Assembly: GCA_020137815.1 (NCBI GenBank)
Contig: CM035362.1
Span: forward strand, 5,146,001 to 5,210,000
From: Hormiphora californensis
Lineage: Eukaryota > Animalia > Ctenophora
DNA length: 64,000 bases
Direction of reading: 5' to 3'
In this document: positions 14,558-56,072 of the stretch, one piece after another
Layout: every line of letters starts with the position of its first letter
Position numbering within the stretch: position 1 is the first letter of the stretch
Position numbers and translations under genes: made by a program
Notes under the pieces: generated by a model
Databases searched by the model: none
What the model was told of the DNA's origin: nothing
Seen by the model: only the letters and a program-made list of their open reading frames with translations

Positions 14558-14862
14558 TTTAAACGACACTGGAAGTTCTAATTCTGTCATGGAGATGTTT
14601 TGGAACAGATCAGTGCAGGAACGCGCGAAGACACGCTTGTGTGGTGTCAGTTGGTTTCTGGCGCGGGCTGCCTCTTGCCAACGCGCGCAGCATCGTCTTG
14701 GAGTTGGGAATGGGAGTGGAAACCGGAACCGGAACAACCACTTCTAAAAAAGTCATTTGGTGAAATTGAGAGTTTATCCCATGTAACCGGTTAACTCAGT
14801 GTCGAAAAATAAACATATGAATGATTTTTACAGCAGTTCCACATTGTAAACCGAAACGGTGA

Positions 14863-22886: not shown

Positions 22887-23280
<394 letters not shown>

Positions 23281-25380: not shown

Positions 25381-25679
25381 TTTGTGTTTTTTGTGTGTTG
25401 AACATAAACGTAGTCAAACGCAATGAGAAAGTGACTGATGATATGGTATATTATATCTAATAGTAGGGGCACTTAGACCAGCACGTGGTTAAAGTCTAGT
25501 ACCAAACTTTTTGCACATTGTCATAACTCCTTTATGTCACCACCAATCACGTGCATGATCTAAGCGCTCCTACTATAACAATCTGGTTAGTTTTTATCTA
25601 TAAATTATCTTCTCAACACTGAACACCGCTGTTTGAACATAAAGATAAGACTTAACGCCTATTTTTATCCCATCAAGGT

Positions 25680-27072: not shown

Positions 27073-27282
27073 TAATTGAGAGTTTAGAAAGCTGTGTGCT
27101 GTGTGTAGCAAGGGTATTAATACTGATATGTTTCTAAGATAAATTTGCTTGATTCTTGGCGGTCCACTGTTATGCGATTATAATGATATTTTTATTCTTT
27201 AAATTTTGATGTTCGTTTCTTTGGTGACCACTATCTTTACTGATTGATAAAATCCTAAAATCTCCCTTTCTCCCATCAAGGT

Positions 27283-29051: not shown

Positions 29052-29261
29052 GAATTGAGAGTTTAGAAAGTTGGTTGCTGTGTGTAGCAAGGGTATTTAT
29101 ACTGATATGTTTCTAAGATAAATTTGCTTGATTCTTGGCGGTCCACTGTTATGCGATTATAATGATATTTTTATTCTTTAAATTTTGATGTTCGTTTCTT
29201 TGGTGACCACTATCTTTACTGATTGATAAAATCCTAAAATCTCCCTTTCTCCCATCAAGGT

Positions 29262-29995
29262 ATGGCTAAAAGAAAACGTGGGAGTCGTTCTTCAGGAAGT
29301 CCAACTAAAAAGGTCACAAAATCAGCTGAAAAGTTTGATATTCCTGCCCTCCTTAAAACGGAACAAATTGAGGTGGAAAGCAACATCAAACCTGAAATTC
29401 TCTCACCCTGCACCGACTCCAAGAGTTCCAATATTAAACTAACCTTACTCAGCACAACCTGGTGCACAGTGGAGATAAACCTCACCAATGTGACGAGTGT
29501 GGTATGAAATTTACTCAAAAAGTTAGTTTAACGAAACATCGGCATTCAATTCATAACGAGAACACTATAGTTTTTTGCCGACACCAAAATTGTGGAGTGA
29601 GATTACCCAAAAGCGAGTTATATGAGCACATCAGGTCTGCACATCCGAAAGAGAAGTTGCAGTGTGATAAGTGTCCTTACTCTTTTAAGTTTCAGTCAGA
29701 ACTGAGCCGTCATAATCGAAGCCATACTGGAATTAAACCATATGAATGTAAGGTTTGTGGTAAAACGTTTTCTCAGTCCAGAAATTATACTCGGCATTTA
29801 AAGGTGCATACTCGAGAGCGTCCATTTAAATGTGATGTCTGTGGTAAGACCTTTTCTGAAGCAGGTGATTTGAGGAGGCATATGAGGACACATACTGGTG
29901 AGAAACCATTTGCTTGTTCTAACTGTGGGAAATATTTTACCCAAAATCATAACAGAAAAGCTCATGAGGTTTCCTGTTTTCCGAAAAACAATTAA
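29262..29995 (+). pseudogene. C2H2 ZF copy 3, internally deleted and out of frame
   Basis: Exon 1 breaks off at ~29436 and runs directly into finger sequence in another frame. Confidence 0.75.
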
Positions 29996-30204
29996 CAGTT
30001 GATAATTTTGAAGGTTGTGTGGCATGCCGCATGTGTACCAACTGCAGTATTTGAAGTCTTTTTTGAGATAATAAATAAAATGTATGTTTCAATTCTTGGC
30101 GGTCCTAATTTTATATTAACAGTTTTATCGATTATATAATGCTATTTTGTATCTCAAAAATTACTGATTAAAAATCTGAAAACCTCTTTTTCTCCCATCA
30201 AGGT

Positions 30205-31921
30205 ATGGCGAAAAGAAAACGTCGTTCTTCAGGAAGTCCAACTGAAAACGTCACAAAATCAGCTGAAGAGTTTGAAATTCCTGCCCTTTTGAAATCAGAA
30301 CAAATTGAGGTGGAAAGCAACATCAAACCTGAAATTCTCTCACCCTGCACCGACTCCAAGAGTTCCAATATTACAATTTCCTCAGATAACATTTTAACAT
30401 TCACATGCGGTGGGTGTGGGGTATCAGGTAATCACCATTTGGGTTTCGAGTACCGGCTAGTTAAAACTGCAATGTTATTGGAAGTTGGTACTCAAACTGG
30501 AGATGAGTCAAGTTCCTCTGAGATTCCTGTCGAGACGTCCAATACTCGATCCTTGGATGACCAAAACAATCCCGTCTCTGGTCCTGCTGCTTCTGCTGCT
30601 TCTACAATTGTTGTGTCTTCTGATAATGGTAAGCGTCAGACTAGTGATAGTCTGAGACTACTTTCACTTTCATCTTGTTTTTATTCTTTAATTGTGTTTA
30701 TTTCATGTAAAACAGGATTAGGAGCTGATAAATCCTAATGTGTTATTGGAAGTTCTAACCCTCCTTTTTATTTTCAGAAGATACTTCAGATGATGAGGAT
30801 TGCTCTGACTCTGATGAAGAGGAATCTCCGTGTGAATCTGGTGAGGAAGAAGTTAGCAGCTCTGAAGATGACATGATGTTGGGTCTTACAGATGCGACAC
30901 TGAGTGATTCCAGTGAAGAAGAAGAAGAAGGAGTTCAGCAGAGTTCTTCCCAGAAACCCACCTCTCCAAAACTCCCTGTACCCCAGTCACAAATGCTAGC
31001 TCGTCACTCCCTTGTTAACGAGCCGGCTACTTCCAATCTTTCTTCTTGTCGGAAATCTGTGAGGAATATGCAAACTAAAACCAAACTAATCCTGGACCCT
31101 TCTCTTGCAACTGAAACCCATCCAAATCGGGCCAATTCTAATCGAGCGTCCATTAGTGGCAAATATAGGAAGCAGCGTCGTCCAAAATTTCCAACGAAAC
31201 TGATGAGCAGAACAATCTAGCAAACGAGCAATGTTTCCGGTGTAAATTCAGAGGGTGCCCGGTTTTCAAACTAACGGAGCAGGACTTGTTCGAGCACGTT
31301 AGAATTGATCATGCAGATAGGAAATATCGGTGTAAAGTTTGTCCTATGGCTTTCATAATTCCTAGTTTATTAACTAAGCACAGGCGCCTGGTGCACAGGG
31401 TAGATAAACCTCACCAATGTGACGATTGCGGAAAGAGGTTTAAAATTAAATCTAACTTAGATAGCCATCAGTTGATTCATAACGAGGAAAGGGAAGTGTC
31501 TTGCTTTTATAAATATTGTGGAGTGATAGTACCTAGGAACGCGATGAACGAGCACATCAGAACTTCTCACGCGAAGGAGAAGTTCCAGTGTGATATTTGT
31601 CCAATGAGTTTCAAGACTTTTCAGAGTTTAACTTTACATGAACAGAAACATACTGGAATTAAACCATACGAATGTGAGCTGTGCGGGAAGACGTTTTCTC
31701 AATGTAGTAATTATAAAAGACATTACATTTCGCATACTGGAAAGCTTCCATTTGAATGTGATGTCTGTGGTAAATCATTTTCCCGATCTGATACTATGAG
31801 GATCCATATGAGGACACACACTGGCAAGAAACCATTTGCATGTTCTCACTGTGGGAAAACTTTTGCCCAGAATTCAAACAGAAAATTTCATGAGATTTCC
31901 TGTTCTGCGAGCCAGAATTAA
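30205..31921 (+). pseudogene. C2H2 ZF copy 4 (exons 30205-30628, 30778-31921) with a frameshift
   Basis: 2-bp insertion near 31175 versus copy 2 (AAGCAGCGTCG vs AAGCAGTCG) gives a stop at 31220; fingers continue in another frame. Could be an assembly error. Confidence 0.7.
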
Positions 31922-32116
31922 CAATTGAGAGTTTTGAAAGTTGTGTGCTGTGTGTAGCAACTGGTATTTATACTGATTATATGTTTCTAAGATAAATTTG
32001 CTTGATTCTTGGCGGTCCACTGTTAAGCGATTATAATGATATTTTTATTCTTCAAATTCTTATGGTTCTTACTTTGGTGACCACTATCTTAACAATTCCC
32101 TTTCTCCCATCAAGGT

Positions 32117-34643
32117 ATGGCGAAAAGAAAACGTGAGAGTCCAACTAAAAATGTCACAAAATCAGCTGAACAGTTTGATATTCCTGCTCTCCTGAAAACG
32201 GAACAAATTGAGGTGGAAAGCAACATAAAACCTGAAATTCTCACACCCTTTACCGACTCCAAGAGTTCCAATATTACAATTTCTGCGGATAACATTTTAA
32301 CATTCACATGCGGTGGTTGTGGGGCATCAGGTATTCACCATTTGGGTTTAGAGTACCGACTAGTTAGAACAGCCACATTGGTGGAGGTTGGTACTCAAAC
32401 TGGTGATGAGTCAAGTTCCTCTGAGATTCCTGTCGAGACGTCCAATGGCATCTCTGCTATCTCGGCCCCGGTCCCGGTTATCCCAGAGAGCTCAGCAACC
32501 AACAACCCGGTAAGTGTGCAAATAATTAGGTTTTTACTTCGTGTTCTCTTTCCTTCACTTTTATAATCTTAGCTCTCCTAGACCGGCCCATCAAGTTGTC
32601 CTCTTTCTTTCTCTAAATCTCTAACCAATACACCCTCTCTATACCTTCTTATTATATTAGTAAATAAATATCTTCCTAGGCTGAAGGAAGATCGCCATCT
32701 GTACAGGCATTTGTTGATGACCTAAACAAAAAATTGGCGGCCTGCAAGGATGTACAGTCAGTAACTTCGTGTACCGATATCAGGATGGCGGTAAGTTTGT
32801 CATCAGGAACCGACCGAATCAGGTAATACTGGTCCCTGATTGGCTGATAACCAGTCACGTGACCTTAATAACGAGCTCTGATTGGTTGTTTACTTGTTTC
32901 GGTCGGTTTCTGTTTGTCATCATGAGTAGTAGGTAAAATAGCCCCGCTGTACCACCTAAAAGTGTGGCACACCATATTTGGGCATATGACGTCATCACAT
33001 ACCCAAATATGGTCATATGACGTCACATCACGTGACTTATCACGTGCTTTTATCATATCATGTGACATGATCACGTGTTTATCATGTGACATGGTCACAC
33101 GGTCACGTGACTTTAGTCATCGACTGACCAAATATGGTCATGTATGATGTCACCACATGATTTTCCTCGGTTGGCTGTCAGCTGTGCACCAGGTGTAGTA
33201 ATTGATCTGTGTATCAAGTTCGAGAGTGTGAGAGTGAGAGAGAGAGAGAGAGAAAAAGAGAGAGGGATAGATATTCAACATACTATGAAATAATCAAACA
33301 TGCTCAATTCAAATCACCTAATCCTTCTCTTCTCCTATCCTCTTAGCAACCGAAACATCCATGATGACCGAAAGAAAGACTCTGAATATCGAACAGCTTC
33401 ACCGGAAAGCCTTGTCAGCGGCGAGCAAAAATATAACCAAAAACTCGCAGAAATCATGGAAAGAAACTAAATCTTCCCAAAAAGAGGATCAAAACAGGTC
33501 ATATGATAAAATACCCGTTGGGGAAAATGATGGTGTATCTCTCTCTCTCTCGTTCAGCGACTGTGAATGTTCATTAATGATTAATGATCATTTTCAGATA
33601 ATTTTGGAGTGGAGACAAACACACAACTCTTCAAAAGAAACAAAAATTAATCGAAACTTTTCATATAACTTTACGAAAATGCAAAACCATCGATGTAGGA
33701 AAATCTCTCGAATCATCTTCTGAAAACTCAAAAAGCTTGTTCATATTATCACAAATTACAAACTGTATTTCACTCAAATTGACAAATCTCACTTTGAAAT
33801 AAGAAGGGTTTACAAATTCATAATGATTGTACCCCAATTTTTGCTCGAATGGGAACATAGCGAAAAATCTCGAGTCATGTTCATTTATTTGTCTATAGTC
33901 CGTGTATGCATGTGGTACAATGTTTGAATAGATATATCCAAGCTTTGCATGCCTCGGAAAGTCTTCTATTTTACCCGAAATTTTTGGTGGTAAAAGGTGG
34001 AATGGACTGTTTTCCATGTAAGTCTTAAAAAACCTCAAAACACTATTTTCACTCGTTGCAAATCCTTTAGTGGAATGACGATACTCCAGAGTACATACAT
34101 GTGTTGTTTCATCTGCAAAGTACTCTGGGATAGGCCAATGATCAGAACCATTCACCAGATTTTCCTTTTCTTCAGAGCTTATCGCCTTTTGCATTGCTAG
34201 TAGTAATTGTGCTCCGTTTCGATAATACCCAGGTGGAATTGAGTAATCTCTGGATTCATAATCCTGTTCCCTTTCGGATACCAAAAAGTGATTATTACCC
34301 TTGGTTACGTTAAATGTTGATGAAGGAGCGTGACTTATACTTTTTACAGCTACTTCATAGTCTCCATTCAAGTCTAATGCATTCTCCGATCGAAAGATAA
34401 ATTTACTGGGATTTTGTTTATAACTAGTAGCGATAAGGTACATGATTATAACTACTACTTGCATACGATTACATCCACGTTTCTTTTGAATTGAGTTTTA
34501 TGTGCTTAAATACTAATTACTCCACCATATTTGAACATATGAGGTCTACACATATCCAAATATGAACATATGACGTCACATGATCACGTGGTCATGTAAC
34601 TATGGTTCATATTTAGACATATGACGTCACCACATGGCATATT

Positions 34644-34732
<89 letters not shown>

Positions 34733-37700
34733 CAGAGACAGAGACAGAGACAGAGACAGAGACAGAGAAATAGAGAGACATCATACGAGATTCCGTGTGG
34801 GAGCGGTTCGTTTAGTGGACTGAGAGGGGGAGAGAGAGATAGAGAGATAGAGAGAGAGAGTTCCTTCTATTATATTATCATATTAATTATTGTATCCCTT
34901 TACATCTGTTCATTATCTTTTACTCACTCGACTTGATGTTGCTCTAGTTCTCTGTCTGCTGACCAAATGGATCCAATAACCCTTTTGATTTTGCTGGTTA
35001 TCTTCTTCATGCATCCTTACTTGACTAGACAGAAATCTGTGAAGTGTACAGTATGCGGAAAGACCATGAGGAAGGATACTCTTGGACGACACATGAAGAC
35101 TCATAATCCAACTGAAGAATGTCGTTTTTGTAAGAAACAAATTCGGGAGGATCGGTTGACTCACCATGAGACACTATGTCAAGATAAAGTCGACGAGAGT
35201 GTGTGTGATAGGGTTACAGGTGTTCATGAGCATATGGATGATTCAGTGGAAACACTCCCACAGTGCAGCTCAGTTTCTGGATTTTTCCGATCCTACGAGT
35301 TAAATGTGGAGAAAAGCATTGACTACGATAAAATAATTGAGGACACTTGTAGTGCTGTAAAGCACATCGTCACAGAGTCTGTCAAGAGACACCCGATAAA
35401 GGCACAGATCTCTATCTCTCTTTCCTTTTACAAAGATGTGGATGGTCAGAGAAATGGGTCAGAAAAAGTATTCCGATCACAGTGTGAACCCATAATAGCT
35501 GGTGACAATGTTGACGAGTTTCTCAAACGGGCAGCTGTGATCATTCGACATGGAATTGACGTATACGAACGATTTGGAAGTGGGTGGATTTTTGACAATC
35601 ACCAGTGTTCCAAACTTGAGCTGGCCAAATACTCACCACTATCGGGGTGTGGTTTTGTCACGCTCCCAAAGAAGCTGAGAGATATGCGATCGGTCTTAAA
35701 CATCCGTTCAACTGATAATCGTTGCTTCCTCTATTGTCTTTTGGCTCACCTATTCCCGGTAAAAAGTCATCCAGATAGGTATACAAAGTATCTGGACCAT
35801 GTACACAAAGTTGAAATGGGAGGTGTTAAGTTTCCTGTGAAACTAAGGGAAATTCGAAAGGTGGAACATCAAAACAATCTTTCTATCTCTGTATTTCAGT
35901 GGTCTAACGATGGTGGAGGTTCTGTTATACCCTTGAAACATGGTAGTGGAAAGGGTACCCAGATCGATCTCCTTGTTATCGAGGGTGGAAATTCATCACA
36001 CTACCTGTTGATAAAGAACTTCAACAACTTCATGAGACATCGAACTAAATACCACCACACCATGTTCTATTGTCGAAAATGCCTCCATGGGTTTGTCAAC
36101 AAGAGGAAACAACGAGATCATTCTACTCTATGCCTCCAGGGAATCAACCAGATTACCGTTATGCCTCAGCCGGGTGTTATCAGTTTTACAGAAAAACACA
36201 AGGGTGAAAAGAAGGCTTTCGTGATCTACGTAGACTTTGAGTGTGTTTTACAGAGAGTTGACTCTTCTGATTCCAACCGCTCGGTCACCAAGACGGAGAA
36301 ACACCTTCCATGTAGTTTCTCCATCGTCTCGTCTTCTGTTTTCGAGAACTACAACGAGGAGGAAATTGTCTTCTCGGATCCCGACCCAGCCAAAGTGACC
36401 CACCAGTTTGTCAGCGAGTTGCTGCGTATCTATACTACAATGATGGAATGTCAATCAACTAATGACTTTCCTATACACATGAGTGATCACGATGAGCAGG
36501 TGTTTAAGAATTCAATAAACTGTCACATTTGTGGTAAGGAACTTATGTGGGGATCGACAAAAAACTATCCTGTCAGGGATCATGACCACCGTCAGGAGCA
36601 TAACAACTTCCGGGGGGCTGCATGTAACATCTGCAACAGAAACTATTACAATCGTAGTCGGAAGGTTCCTGTTTTGGCTCACAATCTCAAAGGCTACGAT
36701 TTAAACCTTTTCCTGAGAGATCTAATACAATTTGTGTATAAGGAAGAGGAAGAGTTTGATGAAGTGGAGGGTCTCGACGAGGAGGATGAGCTCGGTGATG
36801 TGGACTTGGTTAATCCAAAGAAAAAGGACAGCATGTCCATCATCCCTGAAAACCTTGAAAAGATAAAGGCAATATTCACAAAAAAGTTCATTTTTCTTGA
36901 TTCTCTTGCCTTTCTATCCGCTCCTCTGACAACATTGGTTAAGAATCTCAAATCATCTGGACTGGAGAAGTTTCACCGCCTTCGTAAGAAATTCCCAGAC
37001 CATTTAGATATATTGACTGATAAGGGTGTCTATTGCTATGAGCATGTTCAAAAGTTTGAGGATTTGGAATTACCACATCTCCCTGCTAAGGATGCGTTCT
37101 ATAGTCATCTCACTGAGTCAAATATCACAGACGAGGATTACGTGCGAGCACAGACTGTTTTCAGAGAAATGAATTGCACCTCGCTCCTGGATTACATGAG
37201 AATCTATGTGTTGGTTGACACCCTCCAACTAGCTGACATATTTGAGAATTTTAGGGAGTTGTGTCTGACGTGGTATCAATTGGATCCAGTACACTACCTT
37301 AGTCTACCAGCATTCGGATGGTCAGCCATGCTCAAGATGACAGATGTCAACCTCGAAAAGATTACTGATATTACTCAATATACTTTCATTGAAGAAAGTT
37401 TACGAGGTGGGGTAACCACTGTGAATTGTCGTTACCACAAGGCCAACAATCCCTACCTGGATAACTATGACCCTCAAGTAGACACAACCTACATTCATTA
37501 CATCGACTGTAATAACCTGTGAGTGAGATATGATCTGAATTTACCTATACCTTATCCCAAACATTATCACATTTTTTATTACTTCATCGGTATAATTTAC
37601 CAACATCAACACTTGTATTTTCAGGTATGGTGATTCTATGAATCAGCCTCTACCAACTGGTGATTTCAAATGGTTGAAAAAAGAGGAGATTAAGGCGTTT

Positions 37701-40700
37701 GATGTCAACTCCACAAGAACAGATGGTGATAAATGCTATATGCTGGAAGTAGATTTGGATTACCCTGATGACCTACACGACAAACACACTGATTTTCCTC
37801 TTGCTGTGGAGGGGAAATCGATTGAGAAAGAGCAATTGTCAGAATTTAATAAAAATGCATTGGAGAGAAATGGGGATAGATTTATCAGGACAAGGAAACT
37901 CATCCCTGATTTGAAACCAAAACATAGGTAAGTTGGATGTGACATGAATTCTAAAATTGTAATATTGAAGTTTGAACAAGTTTGAACACCACTGGGTGAG
38001 AATATAATGACCTCTCTTTTCCTTGTTTTGTCAGGTACACCTGTTCACTGAAGAACCTACAGCTTTTTTTAAAGCACGGATTGGTCCTCATCATGATTCA
38101 CAGAATACTCTCCTGCACACAACAGGACTTCATGAGTCAATATATCCAATTCAACTCCAAAAAACGTCAACAATCAACCAATAACTTCGAGAAGGACTTT
38201 TTCAAGGTAAAGATCAACAAATACATTGAAGTTTTTTCTAATCTCTTAAAATTAATTCAATATTAACGTAACTTTTTTCTTTTCAGTTGATGAATAACTG
38301 TGTGTACGGAAAATTTATCGAATCTGTTCGGAAGCACACCGATGTTAAAGTTGCAACAAACGAGAGAACTGCCAACAAATTAACGTCAAAACCCCAGTAC
38401 ATGGGATACCATAGACTTGACGATGACATGGTCTTAGTACAGTGCTGTAAACAAAAAATTGTCCTTGATAGACCTATTGCATGCGGTTTTATGGTGTTAG
38501 AGAATGCTAAATTCACCATGTCCAATATGTGGTACAATGTGCTAAAACCACTTTATGGAGACAAAATAACCCTACTACTCAGTGACACTGATAGCTTCAT
38601 ATACTCGGTTAAAACTGAGGATGGCTATCGAGATTTGTTTAACATGCGGGAGATTATGGATTTAGCAGACTATCATCCGGACACACCCTTGGGATGTTTC
38701 AAGGATACAAGAAACAAGAAGGTTCCCGGAAAATTCAGCGATGAACTGCCTACTGAAATTATAGAGGAGGTAATCAGTTTAAAACCGAAGATGTATTCAA
38801 TCGCTACGAAAAAGCTGACATGCAACACCATACACACAGATGCAAATCACCAGTGTACCTCGAGTTGTACAATTGGTCACTCGGCACGAGCAAAGGGGGT
38901 TTCTAAGACTGCTCAGAGGAAAATTACCCACGATGACTACAAAAAGACATTGTTCGAGGGTATCACAACTACAGCTTCTAGCAGAGCGATCAGGTCATTG
39001 AACAATAATCTTTTTACTGTTAATGTTACAAAGCGAGCTCTGTCATCATATGATGATAAAAAGTATGTCTTGTCTAACGGTGTGAACACCCTTAGTTATG
39101 GACATTTTAGATTGAGATGATTTACTTTGTGTGACTTCCTTTTTTTCTTTTTCTTTTTTGGGAGAAAATGAAACAAATCATGTGTTTGTGTTGAAAGTTT
39201 AATGCTCAAGTGTTCTTAATATTCAATATTTTTCCCGAAAATGTAAAACTATGACAGTGGGGAAATCATTTTTAACTTTATTTTGAAAATTCAAAGATTG
39301 TTTCATGTGTATAGAGAGAGAGAGGGAGAGAGAGAGAGAGTGAGAGAGTGAGAGAGAGGGAGAGAGAGAGTTCTGAATTACAATGGAGTACCTTGGATAT
39401 AGACATAGAATATAAGTGTCAAAGTAGCACATTTTGACCAGGGAGGATAGCTGGGCCCCCTAAGGCGTCGAAACTGCAGGATTATCTTGTAGTGCGGATG
39501 TCGTGGGTTCGAATCCCACCGATGCCATCCCCGGCTGTTCTCCCCTTTTACTATAAAAAGCAAATAAAGATGAGATATAGTTTACTTTGAGAAATGTCTC
39601 CAGTAGCTTACATCACATCCGTGCTTCTTGTCAACTCATTCATTGTTCAGTTTCAGAATCCAAACTGTACACACTTTCTTTCGTTGTCCGGCAGTGATGA
39701 AACACGTCTAGAGTTACACCGAGCTGAGGATCTTATACAACTCGTAATTCACAACACTAGCTACAACCCTACTAAAATATAGTTCGACGCGACGCAACGC
39801 GCGATCGATGAACGATCGATAAACGATCGATAAACGATCGATATCGATCGTTTATCGATCGTTCATCGATCGCGCGTCGCGTCGAACTATATTTTAGTAG
39901 GGAATGTACAAATGTACACATTTATCTCAAATGGTACATTCTCGTTTGTATGGCCGTCAAAGTCAATCGATGGTGTTTCAATGAAACTTGTGCACAATAT
40001 TGGAATCTTTCATCAGCTAACATTTGACAGACTGACAATCCACTGTGATGTTATACATTTTCAAGGAGGTGATTACCAGGAGTATAACACAGAAGAGGAT
40101 GTGTATCAATGCAATCATACCTCTTCGAATAATATTATTCTCTATTGTCTGCCAGTGATTGTAATTTTCACTCTCATTATCGGGGGCAATATGCCAGATT
40201 TTGTGAAATTCTTCATTGCAAAATACAATCTAGTACTTAACGGACAACATACCGTGGCGCAACAGGAGACCACTATATAAGACCAAAATAACAATTTCAT
40301 AATTTAACAACTATGAATACATATTCTTTGTTAGATTATTTTGCTGGAGGATCGAATTCTGACTCGCGTTTATTCTGTTCAAAATGTACTATTCTCAAGC
40401 GATGTTGGAGACATAATGTAGTTGAACTACCACATCACAAATATCAACCTTTGAAGTGGGAAAGGATACCTCTGCGAAAACTCAAAAATATTCGCAGAAC
40501 GACCATATAAAAAGACCCTCTATGAATATAATACTCATTTCCAACTATGGTTGCTATTGATAACACAGAGTTTTATGATGACGTTTGGGGAAAAATTGGC
40601 TCCCTCATTAGATCATACGGAAACGTTCTTAGCTATGAGGCTACTTATAGCTTAACACACGATAGTTTTCGCTTTCCTGTCACATTACCAGACCAAATAG

Positions 40701-43700
40701 CCCCTATCATCGCTGGTATTGACAGAGGATACAATGGAAATCCAGTACGAATCGAGATTGGATATTTCTGGGAAAATGAAGGTGATAATCGACGAGGATT
40801 GGGCACGCACCCTCACCTTTTGACTGTCGCAGATATTGTTCAAAAGGACATTGTTCGAATGATTAAACCTAGTCGAACTATAAGTGTTATTTCCCTAGCA
40901 TTTATCCGTGTGTTAGTATTTAAATTAGATGAAGTTGATGAAGATTATGATATTTGTGACTGTGAAATGTGTAGTATTTAAGACATGTTTCTTTCTGTAC
41001 TTTTATTTCTGAACTCTTGTGTTTTTTAAATTTGTCCCATGGGTCTGTGCTGGTCGACGAAACCATCTTTTGATGAGGATGCATGGGAAAGTCTCTCACC
41101 TACAAAAATACCTTTTGCAGATGAATTTATTGAAAAACAGGAGGTTATAACACGAGTTAGAGAAGCGAACCAAAAAATGCTTGCTTGGGAAATACCAGAG
41201 GAAAAATGTCAACATGTGAAGTTTCAACATGATTTTCATCATTTTTACCCTCCTGTATATGATCAATATTCACCAATTAGTGTAAAAAGCTTTGATCCAG
41301 CTGATATTGAGTGTGATTGTGGGCGTGATTGTGGACATAGTTAGTAAGACGACTAAAACACTCTTGAATTATGAAAGACAATATTTGTAAACAAACATAT
41401 CATTCTGTTTTAAATTCCCAGAAAAGGGTTGTAGTGTCTGTTTCAAACTTTCTATCGACAATCTCTCTACAAAATATAACGCATAATATCCACACGCATT
41501 GCTAGTTAACTGTTGGAGGATCTTATTATTATAAATCACACGTCCTTGCACTATACCCTTCATTGTATCCACAAACTCATGCGTGAATGTAGTCTCATTA
41601 CGATTCAATTTGCGACCATAGCTATCCATGAAGTAGGTGATTCCACCTTTGTATACCACAGCAATCCAATGCTCCCCTGGTTTGCTAGAAGGCGAAGTGT
41701 TCACTATGATACTCCAGTCACCATCGGGTAAATCCGACACCTCATCATAAGCAAATGCCCCTTTAAAGTGATTTGTTTTGATATCATCAAAGGTTTTTGT
41801 AGTTAGAGATTTCATTTAGGGATTAGTCACATTATAGAGCTTATATAGCGTAGAGTTGACGATTTTTGTCGACTTCAATGATGCGATCATAGTAGGCGAG
41901 TGTAAAGAGAACTTTGTCAGTTGTGGATTGTTTTAGCAACTCCAGCACAATCCTCACATTCCCACTCTTGTTCAAGTTCATTCCATGTTGGTTTTGTGTT
42001 TTATCCTGTGTCAAATCAAAACCTAAAGCTGGGTAAACACGGAAATGATGCATTATGAAGTTGTCTTTTCGGGCACCGGTTGCCTCACCAAGAGCAACCA
42101 CCATATTTGTCTCATCGTGATCTGTCATCTTCAACATTTGTGGGTAGTACTCTACACCATTTACATATAATTGCACGCTCTTCACCATGTGTAATGAAAA
42201 AGGATTCTTGTTACGGTTTCTTCCAAAAGCTGAACGATCTTGGATACCAACATAGAAAAAATAGGGTAGAGTACCATTGAACAAGTTGTCAATTGTAACG
42301 ACAGATGTTGCAATAGAATGAATTGACATTACTTTTTTGTCGGCATGATAAATGGCGTTTCTTTTTGCCAATTTTTGCTCTAACAAATTGATCACATCAT
42401 CTCTTGGTTGCTGGTAAGTACATCTAAGGAATACCCTATCCAGTTTAACTTTGGAAGTGTCAGTTGTAGCAGACATGAGGATAGTTTCATCATAGTTTTT
42501 TGTGAGTTGCACTTGAAATTCCAAATCGGAGGGAAGAAGAGTTGCCTGGTTGAAAAGCGTGACATTTAGTTTAGAACAGAGGAACATGGTCTCTCCTCTA
42601 GCAATTCTCTGAGCTCGTATCCGACCATTCTTATTCTTTGGTTCTATTTTAGTATCTTCGGGATAATATGTTGTGTCTTCACTTTCTGTTTTATCACCTA
42701 CATCATCAAGTAGCAGCCCCTCTTTTCGGAGTAAATAAGGTCGTTCACCACGGCCATGATGTATACAATCATCCCAAAATTTGAACATAGCATAGGAGTT
42801 ATCATATGATTGAGTTAGGGATACACCTCCAGATGAAACTTCTACATTTCTCCACAAAATAGCACCAAGGTGAGGTGCGGTGGATACATTCACTCTATCA
42901 GCAGGGACAGTACCATCACCCGATAGTACCCTCATTTCTGTGTAAACATCAATCGAGTCCAACATATGTCGTTCTAAACCGGGAACTGTAAACGAAATAG
43001 TGTCTGAGCTATCGATTGAGTTGTTTGGATATACATCAATTTGCTTTGTCGCGATAATGCCAGTTTGTGTTGACATGGGACTCCATAGATGAAGTTGGGT
43101 GGGAAGACCCTCGGAAGACTTGACGTATTTTGTCATGATACGTTTTTTGTCAAAAGAATATGATTGTTACCTTATATACCCTATGAGAGTGCATCACGTT
43201 TTCGTTTTCCAATCTTTTTAGTGAGTTTGTTAGTACCAGTCTCAATTTGTCTCGCAGCATATTGACCAGCAGCATTTACGAGCTCGTTTCCAGCAGTTTG
43301 GAGACCAGGTTTTGCAATTTCGAAACCTTTTTGGAGGAAGGTTTTACCTATTGGAGCTACGCTACGAAATAATTTTTTGAGAAATCCTCCAATTCCGCCC
43401 CCTCTCTGATTGTGATAGACACCGAGATCTGCGTCGAGAGCCCTATCAAAATCAGCTGTTGCTCGAGGAGATGGATAATACAGTTGACGCATGGTTTTGT
43501 GATTGATTGGACTGGTTTTGAATTGTATTTATAGTACACTGGTAACACATTTTTTAACGTTTCTGAATGTTTAAGATAATAACAGTGGGTAGGATGGCAA
43601 ATTTGAATAATTTTCCCTCAATATCTGTAAATCGAAAGTGTAGATCTGTAAAAGCATGCACAGACAAGGGTCGATACATGGGATTAATTACTTCATGGTA

Positions 43701-46700
43701 ATTGTAACCCTCTTTAGACTTTATGGGGAAACATGCCAACAAATGGGATTGTTGTTGATTTATCGACATATTCGCCACTACAGAAGAATACAAAAATGCA
43801 ACTTCACTCTGGTTCTCCAAAACATAATTATCAATATTTAGCTGATTAAGATATACAAGCTTAGATTCATCATCGTAATTACAGAAACCAAATATTCTCA
43901 TTAAAGTGTCATGTTCACCTCCAGTTATCAACTTAGTGGGTTTTGGTAGTTTTAGAACCACCTTACCAGGGTCAGGTACTTTGAAACTCGAGTCTATTTC
44001 ATTTCTTAAGCATACATCATGCATCGCCTTGACAATCTCACATGTGTTAGCATAGAAGCCAGGAACAATATTCAACTCTTCTGTAGCATCCACTTCAAAA
44101 AGTCGAAATGTATTATTTGATTCGGTGATATTGTAGGTTGGACCGTGGAATATCCCTTTTACTGCGATTTCAAAGTTGTCAGATAAGCTGATAGAGTCGA
44201 GAAAGTTGGACGAGAAACTACTTCGTCTTTGATTTTCGCTTGTTACGATTATATCCATTATTGATCAGAGCCTTTGTTGATTTTAAATGTTTGGTACTGC
44301 GGCGCTTTTTACTCTTTCCCAGCTTTGATTTCAACACAACTCCCAAGGTCCTTTTTATAGGGAGAATTTCAGTTGGAATGTCAAGAGATTTTTTCACTGA
44401 CCCGTCTTCAGCTATCAAACGATATCTCATAGTAGTGCAGGTAGGATAGGGAGTATAGTTTGTAGAATTGAACGAATTATGGATCCACCCTTTTGATTTG
44501 CCTTTATAGGAGCACGGGCATGTTTTCTTATGAAACTCCGATGACGCTTTAGTTTTTTAATTTCTCGTTCGCCCATACTTAAACGGCCATCCAAAATACT
44601 CTTGAAAAGGAGTTTCAGAGCTTTACGAAGGGAAGGTGTGTTTTCCAAAACAATCTGAATTTGAGCATTGTTCTTTCTGGAAAGTAATTTCATTACTGAA
44701 TGATGTCTTTTCAGTATCACAGGAATATGTTTGGGCATGATGTAAAGTAGTCTGTAGTTACAAGCAATTCTTCTGGAACTCTTGGATGAAACGAAAGTAA
44801 CACAAACTGGTATGCTCCGATATATTTATAGGCTTCCATGAGACGCCAATTGTCTTTTCCGAGTATTTGTCGTGCTAGAGTATTAATCTGTGAGAGGTTC
44901 CTCTTGTTTTTGAAAAGAATCATATATTGAGTATTCTGACTAATGAGACGATAATTCTCATTATTGAGAAACACACTGTGGGTAACGAAAATTGTTGTTG
45001 TCTGTTTGTGGTGTGACCCTGCTATAAAGTGTTGGGCCATTTCCTTGTTTAGTTCTAACATCAAGTCGTCTAGAATCAGCAGCTTTGGCCCGTCAAACTG
45101 ATCTATCACATCTAGTTTGAGTCCGTGTACAAATTCAATCTTTTGTTTGTTCTCACTGTTCCATGTGTCCATGAACGGTTGGTGCGCTGCATAGAGGTAG
45201 TATATCTTTTTTGGCATTGGTGAAATTAACTCCTCTCTCACAATTTTCATGATTGTGGTGGTTTTACCGCTCCCACTAGCACCAATAACAAGGATATTCG
45301 AGTTTGCAAGTAACCGCATGATAAGTTTGTAAAATAACACAATCAATCTACTCTTTTATATATCAAACATATCAGACTTGTCTACCCATCTATTCTCTGA
45401 TTCGGGATAGTCTTTGAAACTAACAAAATATTGTTCATGACCACGATGTTTTCTTGTCTTTAAAACTTTATCGATTGCATAAATTTGATTATCTACATCA
45501 ACTTTCTGGACCTCTGCCTCGTAGAAACTTCCCTGTAGTATCTCACCTGAAGAATCTTGTAATCGATATGTAACAGGATTTGTATCCCTCACCTCATCAA
45601 CAGTGAAAACTTCATAACTCCAAGTTTGTTCATACCCTTTCTGGAAGATATCTTTCATCCTAGAAACACGTACGGTGTCTCCAACTTGGAGCTTTGGGCG
45701 AGGTCGTGGGGGTTCGTTGGGGTATAAATTTTCACGCACCTCGTTTTCATTACTCTTGTTCACTTGGTTAGGCTTCATTTTGATAGCACGATGATAACTG
45801 TTGTTGTAGTTTCGAATCAGGTTTTCCAAAATGTCAACCCACCGATGGGATCCTTGGCTGGTGAAGGCACGATATAATTTTGATTTTATTGTTCGATTAC
45901 ATCTTTCAATAATAGCACATTTGCGATCTGAATAAACTGTGTAGGTGTCAATATTAAGTCTGTTAAAAAGATCAATAAGTACTTTATTCTTAAACTCTCC
46001 ACCACCATCAGTCTCAAACTTTTGTGGTTTCAATCGAGTGAGTAATGATTCCAACTCGTCATATACACTCTTTGCAGATTTATTCTTTAATTTGAAGGCC
46101 CATAAACGTTTGCTAAATGTGTCAATAACCATCAATATCCATTTGAATCCATTGTTTTGTTTGGAGTATGCACTCATATCAACTAAGTCGGCTTGAAAGT
46201 GGTAGTTTATCCCCCTGGAATAGATGCGTCTGTAGCGTCTTGGTTTGCGAACAGGTTTATGAAGTGTATACGGATCGCTTTTCAATAGAGCCTTTTGAAC
46301 TACAGATCTTTTCAGTCCTTTAATTTTTTCTTTTGTTGATCGATAAAAACTTTCTTTTCCTGCGAACGCCCCATGTGACACAGGATTTATGTATAACTTT
46401 TGGATCTTGTCTTTAGGTTTTTGTTTCCTTCGACTTTTCCTTTTTCTCATCATGTCGATAAACGTATGAATTATACATCGTGGGTTATGTTTTCTTCCTT
46501 TTATAACAGGAGCAACAAAACGTGTTTGGAAGTTTAGGAAATGATACTTATTAATTATTCCATGAATCTGATTGGTTAATAGGTAAGACACTATAAAAAC
46601 ATTAAAAACCTGACTCTACACGTCACTTCCGTAATGTTGTACTTTGAAAATGTTTGGATAGCTGCACTGACTGATAGCATGGTTCGGAGAGTGTGTAATA

Positions 46701-49700
46701 TTTCGGAGAAATTATGTCCTGCACATAAAGCTGGCCTGAAATCTCCAATTTTACACCATTGTCAACAAGACTCACTGCTGGATAAAATCGGAAAGCACTT
46801 CCATACTGCTCAAGGGGAACTCTTGAGAAATCTTGAGAAGGAATACGAGGTGATATCTTCAAAGTTACCCAAGTCAGATAGCCCCGAGGATGATAAAAAG
46901 TGTTACATTAGTTGTGGAAGGAGTTTTCTGTTAACTGTTACACCAGAAGCCTTGTATTACGGGCGATATATGAGTGAAGACTCTGACAAGTTGATTTACA
47001 CCAAAACTTCAAAAAAGAGGAAGTTGAAATGATCAATTATTATAAATATCTTCATTTTTCTAATACCTTGCAATGAATCGTGTTTTTCCCTTCTTCTTTT
47101 TTGAATACAAAAGTTCATTATAAGGTCATTATAAAGATCATTATAAAATCTCTTTTTCTCTCACTTTCTTTCTCACGTCCTCTTAACTAGTACCACATAA
47201 GATAGAGAGAGAGAGAGAGGGAGAGAGAGAAGGAAAAAAAATCTCTCTCTCTTTTTCTCTCTGTCTCGCTCTCATTCCACGTTCAGCACTCTTTTACAAT
47301 CACACAACCATGAGTCACGTGACTCATCATAAATAGTTAGGATCGTTCCTGGAGTTGGTTGTTCATTATAAGTTCTGTGTTATAAAGATCATTATAAAGT
47401 CTCTCTCTCTCTCTCTCTATCCCTCTTTCTCACGTCCTCTCTCTCTCTCTTACTCGTTCTCATTCTACGTTAGACAGACATCATACGAGATTCCGTGTGG
47501 GAGCGGTTCGTTTAGTGGATTGAGAGGGGGAGAGAGAGATAGAGAGATAGAGTAAAAGTGTATTGTCATTAGGGAGAATCGTTCCTGGAGTTGACTGATT
47601 CCATGAGTCACGTGTTCAACACTTTAGGTATTATATAACCAACCATCTAGCTGACCTCAACTAAACTTCTCTTACCCATCCTAACCTCTGTGCCGAACAT
47701 TACTGCCGAACATGCCTGTTGTGTCTCTGATTGTTTACCTCATCGAAGAGCATCAGAGGACGAAAAGCTACCGGTAAGTCATGTCTTGAATGTTCTCATC
47801 AGCTTTTTTCATAGTGAGATTTACAGCTTTCGACTTGCTTTTTTTTTTCTTTTTTTTTTTTCCGCGCTCGGTTGAATACCGTAGGTATTCACCTGGATGT
47901 CTTTTGCAAAAAGGCATAGCTGTTAAGAATTCGAAAATTATACACAGTGTTGCTTGTAGTGGAAATACGATTTCTGTCAGAAACATGTTGTTCCCTATTT
48001 CGGTGTTGATGATCGTCAGACCCTAGTGTTGAATCGATACTGTATTCTCACTACAAGCACCCCTGATACTAGAGAGATGTCACAGCCACAAAACTAACTG
48101 TTTTTTTTTATCCCTTTCAGAAAGATTTTTACGGATCAAGGAATCTACATATGTTTTGACAAGTCTATCAAGATAGAGACTAACAAGAAGGTAGTTTGTG
48201 TGGTAAAGAAAGCGAAGCCCCCCCAGAGATCCAATATCATTTTGGTAAGAATCAACTCACCCTAGAACAGCTTTCTACTTCTTCTAATTGTTGAGTTCAC
48301 CATACACCTCATTTTGACTGTTTTTGAGTCCTACCCCTTATGAGTTTGGATATGGTCATCGTCACACCCCCTATCCGTGACTTGCCAGAACCCGAATTTG
48401 ACAACTATTTTTTTCCCCTCAGTGCGTTATTCTGTCCAAAGATGTTACTGGGGAAAGTAGTGACGACGACGATGAAGGTAGTGACGAAGGTGCGCTTTCA
48501 AACGAGACACTTGATCCAGATGCAGACTGCGATTCAACGAAGCGAGATGACAGTGCCGGCAAACGCCGAAAGATCTTGATTGAGTGAGACTGTGGGTGTT
48601 AATTGTTAACTGTGGGTGTGTTCAGGCATGTAGGGGAAGTTTTGAAAGTGGTGGGGCCAAATTTTTTTTTGGTCACGTGATATGACATACACTGACTTTT
48701 CTATTGAAAATTCGATTAGATCGGGCGAAGCGATAGCGGAGTCCGAGAAAATTTTTCGGTTTTTAGGGCAAAAAGTCATAGTTTTTGTCTAATCATGAAA
48801 AGAACTGGGGCCATTTCCTGAAAAGTGCTGGGGTCATGGCGTACCCTGCCTCCCCTTCCCCTACATGCGTGGGTGTGTTTCACAAACAACAAAAAAAAAA
48901 AATAAATAAAATAAAAAAAATAAAAATAAACTCTTGCATGAGTCTGTTTAGAGATATTTGTGGGATATGTGAGGTCACCTATTATAGGGGACCAGGCGAT
49001 TAGGACCAGGGGATGTGCAGCGTCACTCAATGATACAAATTATATAGCTGTAGTGTTTAGTACCCGTTTACTGATGATAACGATCGTGTTATTACCTGTA
49101 GGATGACAGTGACAACATTGGCTGTCACTAGTAGTGTTCTGTACAGTATTCTCTCTCCCAGTAATTTACACCGTGGTGAACCTTGTTGTTTAACTGTCTA
49201 TGTACATGTGCACTGGTATCCATCACTCATTTCATAGGGTGGGGAGGTGGTTGGAGGCCCGGTGGGGGTCCTGATGGTAGCTGGATGTCTGCCAGCGATA
49301 CAGCTGGGGGTGGAAAGTTGCCTGGGTGGAAGTTATGTGGTTGGTGCTGGAAATGAACATTTTCAGTCCGTCCGGAAAGATATGGATTTTGGTACGATCC
49401 AATGTTTGGTGTGGAACGGACACTATCTGGTGTGGAAACCCGTGAGGAGTCACGGGGAATGTGCTCTTTGCTGAACACATTGATCTCTGATTCCGATGTA
49501 GCTGTCCGTGGTGGTGTTTGATGGGGAGACTGACTTCGGGGTACAAACTGTGCTACATCGACATTTAACAGACTAGAAGTGATTCTTTCCTCTCCGTACC
49601 GACTAGAAGTGATTCTTTCCTCTTCGTACCCCTCATCACTCTTAGATCTCTTGTAGGATGGTGATGAGATGGATAAGGTTTGGGAAACGTTGGCTGGGGA

Positions 49701-50013
49701 GACACCATCATTGCTGGCCGTGGAGAGAGAGAGAGAGAGATACACCATCATTTTCCCCAACGGGTATTTTATCATATGACCTGTTTTGATCCTCTTTTTG
49801 GGAAGATTTAGTTTCTTTCCATGATTTCTGCGAGTTTTTGGTTATATTTTTGCTCGCCGCTGACAAGGCTTTCCGGTGAAGCTGTTCGATATTCAGAGTC
49901 TTTCTTTCGGCCATCATGGATGTTTCGGTTGCTAAGAGGATAGGAGAAGAGAAGGATTAGGTGATTTGAATTGAGCATGTTTGATTATTTCATAGTATGT
50001 TGAATATCTATCC

Positions 50014-50044
<31 letters not shown>

Positions 50045-53000
50045 ACTCTCACACTCTCGAACTTGATACACAGATCAATTACTACACCTGGTGCACAGCT
50101 GACAGCCAACCGAGGAAAATCATGTGGTGACATCATACATGACCATATTTGGTCAGTCGATGACTAAAGTCACGTGACCGTGTGACCATGTCACATGATA
50201 AACACGTGATCATGTCACATGATATGATAAAAGCACGTGATAAGTCACGTGATGTGACGTCATATGACCATATTTGGGTATGTGATGACGTCATATGCCC
50301 AAATATGGTGTGCCACACTTTTAGGTGGTACAGCGGGGCTATTTTACCTACTACTATCATGTTCATTTAGAAATATTCGTTTGCCTCAATATATCGTTTG
50401 TTTTTGTTGTTTTTGTACATGACAATCTATTTCACAGATTACTCCTGCTGATGGCAAGTTGAGGTGCACCCTCAGTTCCTGTAAACACAAAATTGGTATT
50501 AAGGTGCCACCGCCACCATACACGACCAATGGCAATATTACAAAACCATTCGCTAACATGAGAAAGGCGATCAGAAATCACTTTAGCAGTGACGACCACA
50601 TCAGGAACTGTCAGGCTGCGGTTGCCGTGCCTGCAATCATGTCCAGGTCGAAGCTGGAGATCCTTAAAAAACTGCTGCTGATTGTGTACACCAACATTAA
50701 ACACCGGGTTTCATTCGAGTAAGTTCTTATTACCGTCTCTCAAATTGAAAAAAAAATTCTAACACACATAAACATAGTTAGTTATTATTGTTATTATTAG
50801 CTCTTCCTGCTTAAAACTACCCTCCAATCCTATCAGGCTAGGTATTCCACATGTGATGATAATCGATGTACGGAAACTACGTTACCACAATGTGGATGAT
50901 GGGAATCGATGTAGGGGATCAAGACCTTTCTAAGGAATTTCCCAGAAAGGCACTTCCTATATTCCACGACCAAATCTCCACTGCCGCCAAGAAGAAGCTC
51001 ATCACCATTTGCGGAAGTTTTATTGTACCCTTGGCGGTGATAATCGATGGGGTTACCTCCCACCAGATGTGAGTTGATCAAGCACCATCTTTTGGGCCTA
51101 AAAACAAGAATAACGGTTCTCTGATGATTGAAATATTCTTTCTTATTTAGCAGGCAGCGTGTTGTGGTGGCAGTGCGATATCTTGATCTGGAAGGAGATG
51201 GACCCCTAGTCCGCATTTTGTATGCTGGCCATCCTGTCAACACCAGCCACACAGATGATGCAGCGGTAGTGGTACCATGCCTCCAGAGGATGATACCCGA
51301 TACAACATCCCTGTCCAGGTCTTTGAAATTCTTTATCACTGATGGCCACTTGATAAGTACACGGGTAAGTTTCAATCGTTTTAGACTCAAGATTACAAGC
51401 CTATATATGGAATACTGTATCGTAAGCTTCTAAGCTTTGCTCCTTCATCAAACAGTTTTGCGTTCAGTTTAAGGACGAGATGTGTAGGAAATTGGGTGTA
51501 TCGGTGAATGGCAGGTGCTTCGGTTGGGACTACGGCCATGCAAACCAATCCACCACCAAGGAGGCAATGAACTCGGCGGAGGGGTTGACATTTAAAAGGG
51601 TTGTGGAGGAGTCTTTGGAGATCACATCATTCCTGAGGTAAAGTGCAGTTGTACCCAAAATAGATATTCGTAACTGTAGATCTACTTCAAAACTGATAAT
51701 ACTTTATCAAGCAATTACTTTCTCAGGAAAAATGATGTACATGAGGAAGTCAAAAAAGAAATGAAATTTGTTCATACCGACAGAACCATTGTCCACGATT
51801 TTTATAAGAATTGGAGCACGAATGTCAAGCGTAAGTGTGGGTTAACATATATAATAATGGGTGCTAAGGTCGAAATACTTTGCCCTACTATACGTACAGT
51901 TTGTATTTAATTACAATTCATTTTCAGTGTTGCAGAACCGTGTTTCGGCAGGCACAGACGTGGCCAAGGCCAGGGCATACCTCGCTCTTATGGCATCGGA
52001 TGAGTGGAAGTCGAAGCTGCTGTTCATGAAGGTTATTGTTTGTAAATTTTATAACTCTATGAGACGTGATAATTAGCACTAGCTGAGTCGCTGTTCAGAC
52101 TTCAATTACAGTTCTCTGTATAATTTCTCCCGATCAGGATTTCTTGTCCATGCTCAAGAGATACTCGGTAGCATGGCAGGACAACACAGCGCTCATTGGC
52201 CGGGCGGAGGAAACGAGGAACCAGTTACTTTTTGTTCTGGATAACATCCAGCTGGCTACTCCGTCCGAGGGGACCATGGCGCTCTTCCCCACCTTCCTGG
52301 AGAACAGGTAAACAACCAATCAGAACTCGTTATTTAGGTCACGTGACTGGTTATCAGCCAATCAGGGACCATGGTGCTGTTCCCCATGGAACAGGACAGG
52401 TCCTTGTTAACACAGCAGCAATGTGAGTTACATTTGGTAGTAGTTATAGTTCATATATATATTATATGGGGAGAGCACTAGTACTGTACCTTTTTCTTGA
52501 TGCTGATGCTATATTTGATATATTTGATACATATTTATTTGGGATCGATGGGATAGCCAGTACGGAGTGCCGTAATTTATAATGTGAAGCACCCAATAAT
52601 TTATTATTTTCAGCTCTACCTGGTCTCCTCCACAAGTTCCGGCAAGACAGGCCCAAGAGAGGATGGATAATGTTGTGAACCAGGCCCAGCAGTTCATCAC
52701 TAGATTTAAGACTTGCGTGGAACACACCTGGTTCACACATAGTCTGTGGGGGAAGGATAATCATTTTAGTTCTAGGTACTTGATATATATATAATCATAT
52801 GGTGAGATTCCTATCATAATTCCTAGAATCGATCTTTTGTAAATTGCTATCTCTCTGTTTCTCTGTTTTCCCTCTCTCACATGATATCATTCAGATCCAT
52901 TGAAGAATTAGGGAAATTCCACATGGAGCTCGAGAACGACATTGGGACCCCGATTGTGGACGTTGCTGCCGGACCACTTTCCAGATGCAGCACCTGTAAC

Positions 53001-54699: not shown

Positions 54700-54983
54700 C
54701 ATGTAATTTATTTTATAACCCTGGGACAATAAAAGAATCAGTGATGATGATAAAAATCCTTCAAAATATATGACCTCCATAGATTGTTTGTTTATCTTAG
54801 TTCTGACTACCTTATTACTCCAATGAAGCGAATCTCAAATCAACTATCGAGCATCAATGGAAACCCCCTATCCTGGCCTCTCTTTCTTCCAAATTCCCCC
54901 TTCCAGATTTGACTAAACATTACTCTTTTAACTTGTTTACCGATTCGTAAAATCTAAACTTTCTCTATTCTATGCAGGATATA

Positions 54984-56072
54984 ATGGCAAAAAGTAAACC
55001 TGACCGACCAAGAGCTGGTAGTTCAGAAAGTCCCGCCACGACAGCCGATGGAAAATTTGAAATTCCTCCCCTTCTGAAAACTGAACCAATATACGTGGAA
55101 ACTCCCTGTCCAGTATTCAAGATTCAAACAATACCAGAGGTAGATGAGAACGATATTTTATTCAAATGTGATGGATGTGGAAAACAAGGGAGTTGCCTTC
55201 TGGAATCAGGGTATAGACTTGTTAAAACCGCCATTTTGGTAGAAGTTGGAACTCAAACTGGGTGCGATGAAATTACAGTGGATCCTGTAAAGATGGAAAT
55301 TACTGATCCTCTTTACCACGACTCAATTCCTAGCACATCAGCTGCTTTACCACTAATTGGTGAGTTTTGGAATGTCTTTTTTTCATTGTGTTTTTTAGGT
55401 AGATATCCTCAATGTTAAATTCTAAATTATCTTATTTTTTCAGATGATTTGAATACAAGTTTGTGCTCAGATGAAGGAGAATCTGGTGGTGAGGAAGAGG
55501 TAAGCAGCTCTGAAGATGACATGATGTTGGGACTAAAAGAGGAGACACTCGGAGATTATAGTGAAATAGAAGAAGGAGTTCTGCAGAGTTCTTCCCGGAT
55601 TCCCACCTCTGATCCAAATATCCCTATTTCCCAGTCACAAATTCTACCTCGACAAACTGACCATGACCAACCGACTACTTCCTATCCTGATTTTTGTCAG
55701 ACATCTGCCAGGAATAACGCTGATCCAATAAATAAGCCTCTACTTTCTTTCCTGTATGGGTCTCCATATAATCAATCAGGTCCGGAAGAGTCGTATTCTC
55801 CTCAAACTGTGAGCAATCGAACCTCGCTGGCAATAGATTCTCCTGAAGAAAGTGGGCCGAACGCTCGTTACCACTGTCAAATTATGCGGTGCTCAGTTGT
55901 TACATCATCGGAGAAGGACCTGTTCGAGCATGTTAGAATTGCTCACTCAGATAGGAAATACCGTTGCGATTCTTGTCCAAAGGCGTTTATGTATCTAAGT
56001 GAGCTTACTAAGCACAGCATGATGGTCCATAGTGGAGATAAACCTTTCCAATGTGACGAGTGTGGATGAATT
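54984..56072 (+). CDS. Divergent C2H2 ZF copy 6 (exons ~54984-55359, 55444 to the gap), truncated by an N gap
   Basis: Same N-terminal domain (FKCDGCG, YRLVKT, VEVGTQT), acidic linker and first fingers. Confidence 0.75.

Follow-up and report, generated by a model that had tools for sequence, protein, structure and literature searches.

The stretch analysed here (the window) comprises 64,000 nucleotides (nt) of the comb jelly Hormiphora californensis (assembly GCA_020137815.1, contig CM035362.1, positions 5,146,001 to 5,210,000 of the forward strand). It carries an intact Maverick/Polinton element, a young comb-jelly copy, and within this element we find a new accessory gene hidden by its introns. 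The three-exon gene is very probably real, and a comparison of sister copies shows purifying selection on the protein encoded by its second exon. Its 116-residue product is likely spliced, the introns being predicted from signals and phases. An earlier note on this DNA had proposed that the gene encodes a single-strand-binding protein (SSB) with an OB (oligonucleotide/oligosaccharide-binding) fold; for this orphan gene a single-strand-binding hypothesis is plausible and reasonable. All positions below are those of the window.

A three-exon gene in a Maverick element

The element and the parts of the gene are as follows:

32925..50355, no strand assigned: intact Maverick/Polinton element of 17,431 bp, with AGTAGT/ACTACT ends and the target-site duplication (TSD) ATCATG
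47712..47773, + strand: exon 1, 62 nt, beginning with ATG, 20 codons plus 2 nt, ending in phase 2, donor GTAAGT
47774..48120, + strand: intron 1, 347 nt, GT-AG, phase 2, with a branch-like CTAAC at 48094, a T-rich tract and a CAG acceptor
48121..48244, + strand: exon 2, 124 nt, 41 full codons, ending in phase 0, donor GTAAGA
48245..48422, + strand: intron 2, 178 nt, GT-AG, phase 0, acceptor T7C4TCAG
48423..48587, + strand: exon 3, 165 nt including TGA, with the last predicted strand, an acidic tail and a basic end resembling a nuclear localization signal (NLS)

Joined over the two GT-AG introns, the exons make a single frame of 20+1+41+54 = 116 codons, with the canonical splice signals and compatible phases expected of a spliced gene. 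The exons and phases agree with the earlier note, which had described a hidden three-exon gene at 47712..48587. Chains of exons were counted under rules that were set after the gene was seen: an ATG, GTRAG donors, pyrimidine-rich acceptors and at least 100 codons. Exactly one three-exon chain is observed in 47560-48700, vs 2 of 1000 Markov resamples of the same interval, and none of the 156 flank windows yields any under the same rules.

The following signals and sequences lie around the gene:

47471..47552, + strand: upstream block of 82 bp, 160 bp before the ATG and 97.6% identical to 34771-34852
47603..47637, + strand: promoter-like motifs, ATGAGTCACGTG (second copy at 47310) and TATATA at 47632, with a putative promoter role
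48623..48871, no strand assigned: miniature inverted-repeat insertion in the predicted 3' untranslated region, with 17-bp ends (16 matching) and the 8-bp TSD GGTGTGTT
48901..48930, + strand: cluster of five AATAAA signals, a likely poly(A) site

The TATATA motif lies 80 nt ahead of the ATG. The second copy of the 82-bp block ends 115 bp before the ATG of the presumed polymerase B gene of the element, and we infer a regulatory block shared by the two genes, or else a short repeat. The miniature insertion is presumably hAT-like, to judge from its features. Rfam microRNA matches at 47149-47543 were rejected: they consist of GA/TC repeats and lie below the cut-off.

Purifying selection on exon 2 in sister copies

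The comparison with sister copies covers 5 of 11 DNA runs containing the stretch or part of it, from two organisms (two species). A further run, presumed to be RNA, gave one 41-nt piece, which falls outside the gene and carries no weight. Differences in exon 2 were counted only in parts at least 80% alike, a filter that is not biased to third positions. Among those listed there are 26 single-letter differences (21 and 5 from two listings). Read in the predicted frame, the 26 include 21 third-position changes and 20 synonymous ones, and no stop arises; the ratio of nonsynonymous to synonymous differences per site (pN/pS) is ~0.08 for these 26 listed differences. In the two other frames of the + strand only 1/26 and 4/26 are synonymous, with 2 and 3 stops respectively, for a chance expectation of 20%.

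The loose ends of contigs were read by eye. Seven of the 11 shown (13 in all) continue exon 2, and 6 of these 7, with both organisms represented, keep the frame open and encode similar residues. For the second organism, contig alignments run from the pyrimidine tract through the donor of exon 2. No difference affects the acceptor or donor dinucleotides of exon 2 among those listed in sister copies, and the single listed change at the branch site, 48096 A>G, retains YTRAY. In exon 3 the bin 48437-48533 has zero cover in the four runs of four, a kind of gap that carries no weight. For exons 1 and 3 the support comes from splice signals and phase, the selection evidence being limited to exon 2.

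Some points count against the gene as read here. The p-values (3e-5 for codon positions, 7e-10 for synonymy) overstate certainty and independence, since the differences derive from few contigs. One loose end of run X5 has an extra dinucleotide in a TA run, which shifts the frame, and a contig of depth 7 has a 1-nt deletion at 48126, an apparent frameshift. These frameshifts indicate that some sister copies have decayed.

Repeat-like stretches of high depth with short hairpins occur at 47855-48062 (intron 1) and 48270-48378 (intron 2). Such sequence is found in both introns and behind the stop, and not in exons 1 and 2 (20,000-33,000 vs 280-374 in run X5, sequencing depth in these runs not being copy number). 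An introner origin of the two introns was not adopted, as the high-depth stretches span only parts of them.

Composition and relatives of the product

The residues of exons 1 and 2, together with the 8 that open exon 3, make up a core of 71 residues, basic and rich in V, I and L. Exon 2 contains 9 K/R, 3 D/E and 12 V/I/L in 41 residues. Residues 9-46 of exon 3 form the acidic tail, with 15 D/E in 38, and the final 8 residues, with 4 K/R, the predicted NLS. The layout given by the earlier note (a beta-rich basic core, an acidic tail and an NLS) is in line with this composition.

Searches with exon 2 gave no homolog among longer proteins (4 candidates), no match in the Atlas and just two weak matches in the PDB (E 0.49 and 1); in Pfam they gave DUF3085 at E 0.16, PF00313 being unmatched at E up to 1. 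Three exon-2 matches among 1.84 billion representatives were rejected, since each adds up weak similarities along a repetitive protein, in two cases an immunoglobulin array. For exons 1 and 3 the scans covered Pfam, PHROGs and the window. Exon 2 had no match in PHROGs, no paralog of the gene was found within the 64-kb window, and no related loci were found in viral contigs or metagenome contigs. Single-exon scans of Pfam and PHROGs gave no match to P12, to the SSBs of phi29 and Bam35, to T7 gp2.5, PC4 or gene V, no dedicated profiles having been built for these. The structure predicted for exon 2 alone is uninformative: its predicted local distance difference test (pLDDT) is 62.7 and its predicted template-modelling score 0.24, with no strand of at least 3 residues and 0 Foldseek matches.

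The core against OB-fold profiles

Profiles were built from fetched sequences, and the core was scored, with X at each junction, by an end-to-end profile aligner written for the analysis. The best of the seven fits is to the cold-shock profile (89 sequences), with a z of 3.82; no shuffle among 300 did as well, and two beta-rich windows out of 211 did; the reversed core reaches 1.73 on the same profile. Other profiles gave z values of 1.45 (S1), 0.37 (RNase II OB), -0.01 (AbrB), -0.63 (IF-1) and -1.05 (anticodon OB). True OB domains of other families scored on the cold-shock profile range from 0.6 to 8.6 overall, among them 0.8-5.3 for S1 (n=13), 1.1-2.6 for IF-1 (n=13) and 0.6-4.3 for anticodon OB (n=7). 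By hhalign 60 columns of the core are colinear with the cold-shock domain, at 20% identity, and Tyr20, Tyr30 and Phe33 stand at RNP-1/RNP-2 aromatic positions. Tyr30 and Phe33 show no amino-acid change among the listed sister-copy differences. In this alignment the RNP-1 and RNP-2 motifs themselves are not present in the core, the aromatics matching at some positions only.

A number of results weigh against an OB-fold SSB. The cold-shock profile, one of seven, was picked after the core had been seen by eye to resemble a cold-shock domain. Bacterial SSB (PF00436, ~104 positions) is unmatched: z is -0.84, and 239 of 300 shuffles are as good. On two further profiles the reversed core has z values of 2.6 and 2.1, and non-OB AbrB domains reach at least 3.0 on the cold-shock profile in 3 cases out of 11, one of them at 4.0. 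The hhalign probability is 0.5% (P 0.06); its score is matched by 7 of 300 shuffles and 10 of 200 beta windows (p ~0.02-0.05), and is exceeded by that of the reversed core (7.07 vs 6.62 for the true core). Local HMMER gives 0.5 bits for the core against cold-shock, with 20 of 1000 shuffles as good. The core (~65 amino acids) is shorter than P12 (160 amino acids), and no homolog ties the product to any family in Pfam, PHROGs, the PDB or the protein collections, searched mainly with exon 2.

The cold-shock fit of the core is thus suggestive without reaching significance, and its profile was selected with the sequence already in view. The OB-fold SSB of the earlier note is neither shown nor refuted: the weak cold-shock fit is its only signal, and none came from the bacterial SSB, anticodon OB, IF-1 and RNase II OB profiles. 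The product stands outside the bacterial SSB family by profile and, by motifs, outside the cold-shock family. That it is a single-strand-binding OB fold is in our judgement nearly an even call, while a replication SSB seems possible and rather doubtful.

A possible role in replication and its alternatives

We tentatively propose that the three-exon gene encodes a small nuclear single-strand binder of cold-shock type (OB fold), which would cover the displaced strand of DNA as the polymerase replicates the element. The gene would be transcribed by host RNA polymerase II, spliced by the host spliceosome and expressed together with the polymerase. A five-strand barrel would arise from exons 1 and 2 and the first part of exon 3, in which Tyr20, Tyr30 and Phe33 may stack bases and basic residues may also bind single strands. 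The acidic tail would either mask the binding face (auto-inhibition) or contact the polymerase, a role that acidic tails have in T7 gp2.5 and T4 gp32, and the C-terminal basic motif would drive nuclear import. The 82-bp upstream block common to the gene and the polymerase supports a replication role; against this, GA repeats surround the block, which could itself be no more than a repeat. A nuclear integrated element could use the host protein RPA. A wider proposal is that comb-jelly Mavericks encode a minimal cold-shock-type single-stranded DNA-binding protein as the missing third component of replication, co-expressed with the polymerase via the duplicated upstream block and overlooked because gene finders assume no introns; we regard it as unlikely.

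It is quite possible that the real, spliced accessory gene has a beta-rich core that is not an OB fold (SH3/KOW/Tudor-like, AbrB-like or new), with a nuclear role in host chromatin, in transcription or in genome packaging. All the gene-level evidence, selection and splice chain alike, fits this, and an acidic tail with a basic NLS is common in nuclear regulators. The OB fold signal is weak and depends on the method, yet the colinear cold-shock fit puts three aromatics at OB base-stacking places, and the AbrB profile, the non-OB one among the seven, gives z 0.0. Many small accessory genes are present in adintoviruses (PMC8502044).

Single-stranded DNA is not the sole possible ligand of a cold-shock-like fold, which could also bind RNA. 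The core might then bind RNA or melted promoter DNA and regulate the splicing, export or translation of element transcripts, not replication; we hold this to be improbable. The fold on which this depends is itself unproven, even if the best profile is that of the cold-shock domain and not of SSB. RNA chaperoning is the main activity of cold-shock and Y-box proteins, and the element needs splicing for its polymerase, but a single OB-type domain followed by an acidic tail is the layout that we associate with phage SSBs, and the upstream block is common to the gene and the polymerase.

The chance that exon 2 is coding within a wrong exon model is small. Such a model could involve another first exon, the acceptor at 47814, or a fourth exon via the GTGAG donor at 48584, which overlaps the stop. 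The single chain that passes the rules in 47560-48700, with its matching phases, argues for the model, despite additional donor/acceptor matches at 46583, 47814 and 48584 and the confinement of the selection evidence to exon 2. One contig of run X11 aligns on both sides of exon 1 and not across it (joint 47626-47776); comparable joints are nevertheless also seen within exon 2, whose protein sequence is conserved in the loose ends. The TATATA 80 nt before the ATG and the five AATAAA after the stop also favour the model.

That there is no gene, only chance splice signals in non-coding DNA or the shadow of an antisense gene, is very improbable and largely refuted already by the codon-position pattern: no homolog was found in the protein collections and an antisense mirror frame has 14/26 synonymous differences, but the predicted frame has 20/26, the 14/26 minus frame has 2 stops in the exon-2 span, and the single open minus frame has 1/26.

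How the displaced strand is protected during protein-primed Maverick replication is the question on which this gene may bear, and a product of 116 amino acids is easy to fold and to assay, which makes the question directly testable. Even if the product is not an SSB, Maverick inventories based on scans of open reading frames (ORFs) miss small, selected, multi-exon genes.

The element and its other features

The inverted repeats at the Maverick termini are ~630 bp long, with 99.2% identity over a 636-bp alignment including the target duplication, and the element is flanked by a perfect 6-bp duplication, ATCATG. Its terminal repeats and AGT ends, taken with this duplication, are those of a Maverick/Polinton. 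So is the combination of integrase, packaging ATPase and cysteine protease: the integrase has a chromodomain (Pfam rve, E 1.5e-10, above cut-off), the protease is of adenovirus type (Peptidase_C5, E 0.0014, under the Pfam cut-off), and the packaging ATPase matched P-loop families under the Pfam cut-off. The intact 17.4-kb element, with its repeats, AGT ends, TSD and integrase, bears out the Maverick location given by the earlier note. The Pfam scan of the Maverick ORFs matched neither a polymerase nor a capsid family; the genes that we take to be polymerase B and jelly-roll capsid are therefore named from motifs, size and position.

Two further genes of the element are listed here:

34967..39120, + strand: presumed polymerase B gene, four exons, introns at 37519-37624, 37928-38034 and 38207-38286
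46634..47032, + strand: neighbouring orphan ORF of 132 amino acids, 87% identical to a gene model of Pleurobrachia bachei

The three polymerase introns (106, 107 and 80 nt) are all GT-AG, and with their phases the four exons, none with an inner stop, make one frame of 1287 codons including the stop. The gene serves as a control for splicing within the element itself. Because of these introns the element would depend on host splicing anyway. The polymerase gene carries N-terminal C2H2-like fingers (weak Pfam zinc fingers) and an endonuclease VII-like domain (Pfam E 3e-4). For the 132-residue neighbour we found 3 relatives among 15 candidates, the Pleurobrachia bachei model being the closest, which by itself makes a pleurobrachiid comb jelly the likely host; the predicted structure of the neighbour consists of low-confidence helices (pLDDT 49).

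The ORFs at 33361-33723 (+) and 49227-49956 (-) each begin within a terminal repeat and extend into arm-specific unique sequence. Those at 33661-34464 (-) and 43554-44258 (-) look alike, one being distant from the structural module; we take them to be minor-capsid-like. A palindrome of 136 bp, 90% self-complementary, lies at 39767-39902, with the polymerase on one side and three small orphan ORFs on the other.

A candidate small RNA of RNA polymerase III is found in the element at 39441-39549 (+), with a 15-bp terminal stem, a tRNA-like arm with GGTTCGAATCC and a TTTT end. Its fold has a z of -5.2, and none of 200 shuffles is as good. Rfam tRNA gives 28.4 bits vs a cut-off of 29, and ARAGORN finds no tRNA. 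The layout resembles that of adenovirus VA RNA or vault RNA; it could alternatively be a tRNA-derived repeat.

The Maverick is inserted among host C2H2 zinc-finger genes arrayed in tandem (25680-32566, 54972-56069), a cluster that continues past the right end of the element. Elsewhere in the window, at 9612-14563, a big inverted repeat with 1616-nt arms (97%) encloses a 32-bp tandem array.

Comparison with known systems

In OB folds the aromatics that stack bases belong to strands 2 and 3; protein-primed replicons are possible exceptions to the canonical OB-fold SSB, with varied SSBs, and the adenovirus DNA-binding protein (DBP) is not an OB fold (10.1101/2021.03.25.437074). In PRD1 P12 an OB-like core is joined to a disordered tail, and the protein forms an open pincer, not a barrel (PMC11886824). 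The earlier idea that protein-primed replication needs an OB-fold SSB is softened by this diversity, DBP being non-OB and P12 only OB-like. On the SSB reading, the product would work as the SSBs of protein-primed replicons do. Like P12, the Bam35 and phi29 SSBs and DBP, the product is small, belongs to a linear replicon with a protein-primed polymerase, and has a beta core with a predicted disordered C-terminal tail. Unlike them it has a shorter core, and no sequence link was found, none having been directly tested. In the portions of PMC11886824 and 10.1101/2021.03.25.437074 consulted, none of these proteins is reported as spliced from three exons with an acidic tail and an NLS.

With the cold-shock domain (PF00313, CspA family; an OB-fold single-strand binder) the core shares a length of ~65 amino acids, the predicted strand pattern, the 60-column colinearity and aromatics at RNP-1/RNP-2-like places. 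It differs by its 20% identity, far under the family cut-off, and by lacking the KGFGF and VFVH motifs as such.

The adintovirus "Oncoid" (Starrett et al. 2021, PMC8502044) is likewise a small accessory protein with an acidic stretch resembling CK2 sites. In contrast, LxCxE and paired CxxC are absent from our product sequence, which is therefore not an "Oncoid", and the gene has its place past the integrase and not ahead of the polymerase.

No SSB was found in the accessible text of the Maverick/Polinton papers PMC11071308, PMC8502044, PMC8097293, 10.64898/2026.06.19.733378, 10.1101/2023.08.22.554363 and 10.64898/2026.10.13.758929 (supplementary annotation tables, possibly listing SSB-like genes, being outside this scope). 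The literature search found no paper naming an SSB in an animal Maverick, the main review being outside its scope; PMC11161782 treats polymerase domains.

Introners are present in dinoflagellate eupolintoviral elements (PMC12166617). Like the vertebrate Mavericks/Polintons of Barreat and Katzourakis 2021 (PMC8097293), the comb-jelly element has a length of ~17 kb, terminal inverted repeats, a 6-bp TSD, (AGT)2/(ACT)2 ends, an integrase, an ATPase, a protease and accessory regions flanking the core. Intact vertebrate elements are described there as intronless, whereas here three introns interrupt the polymerase gene and two the accessory gene.
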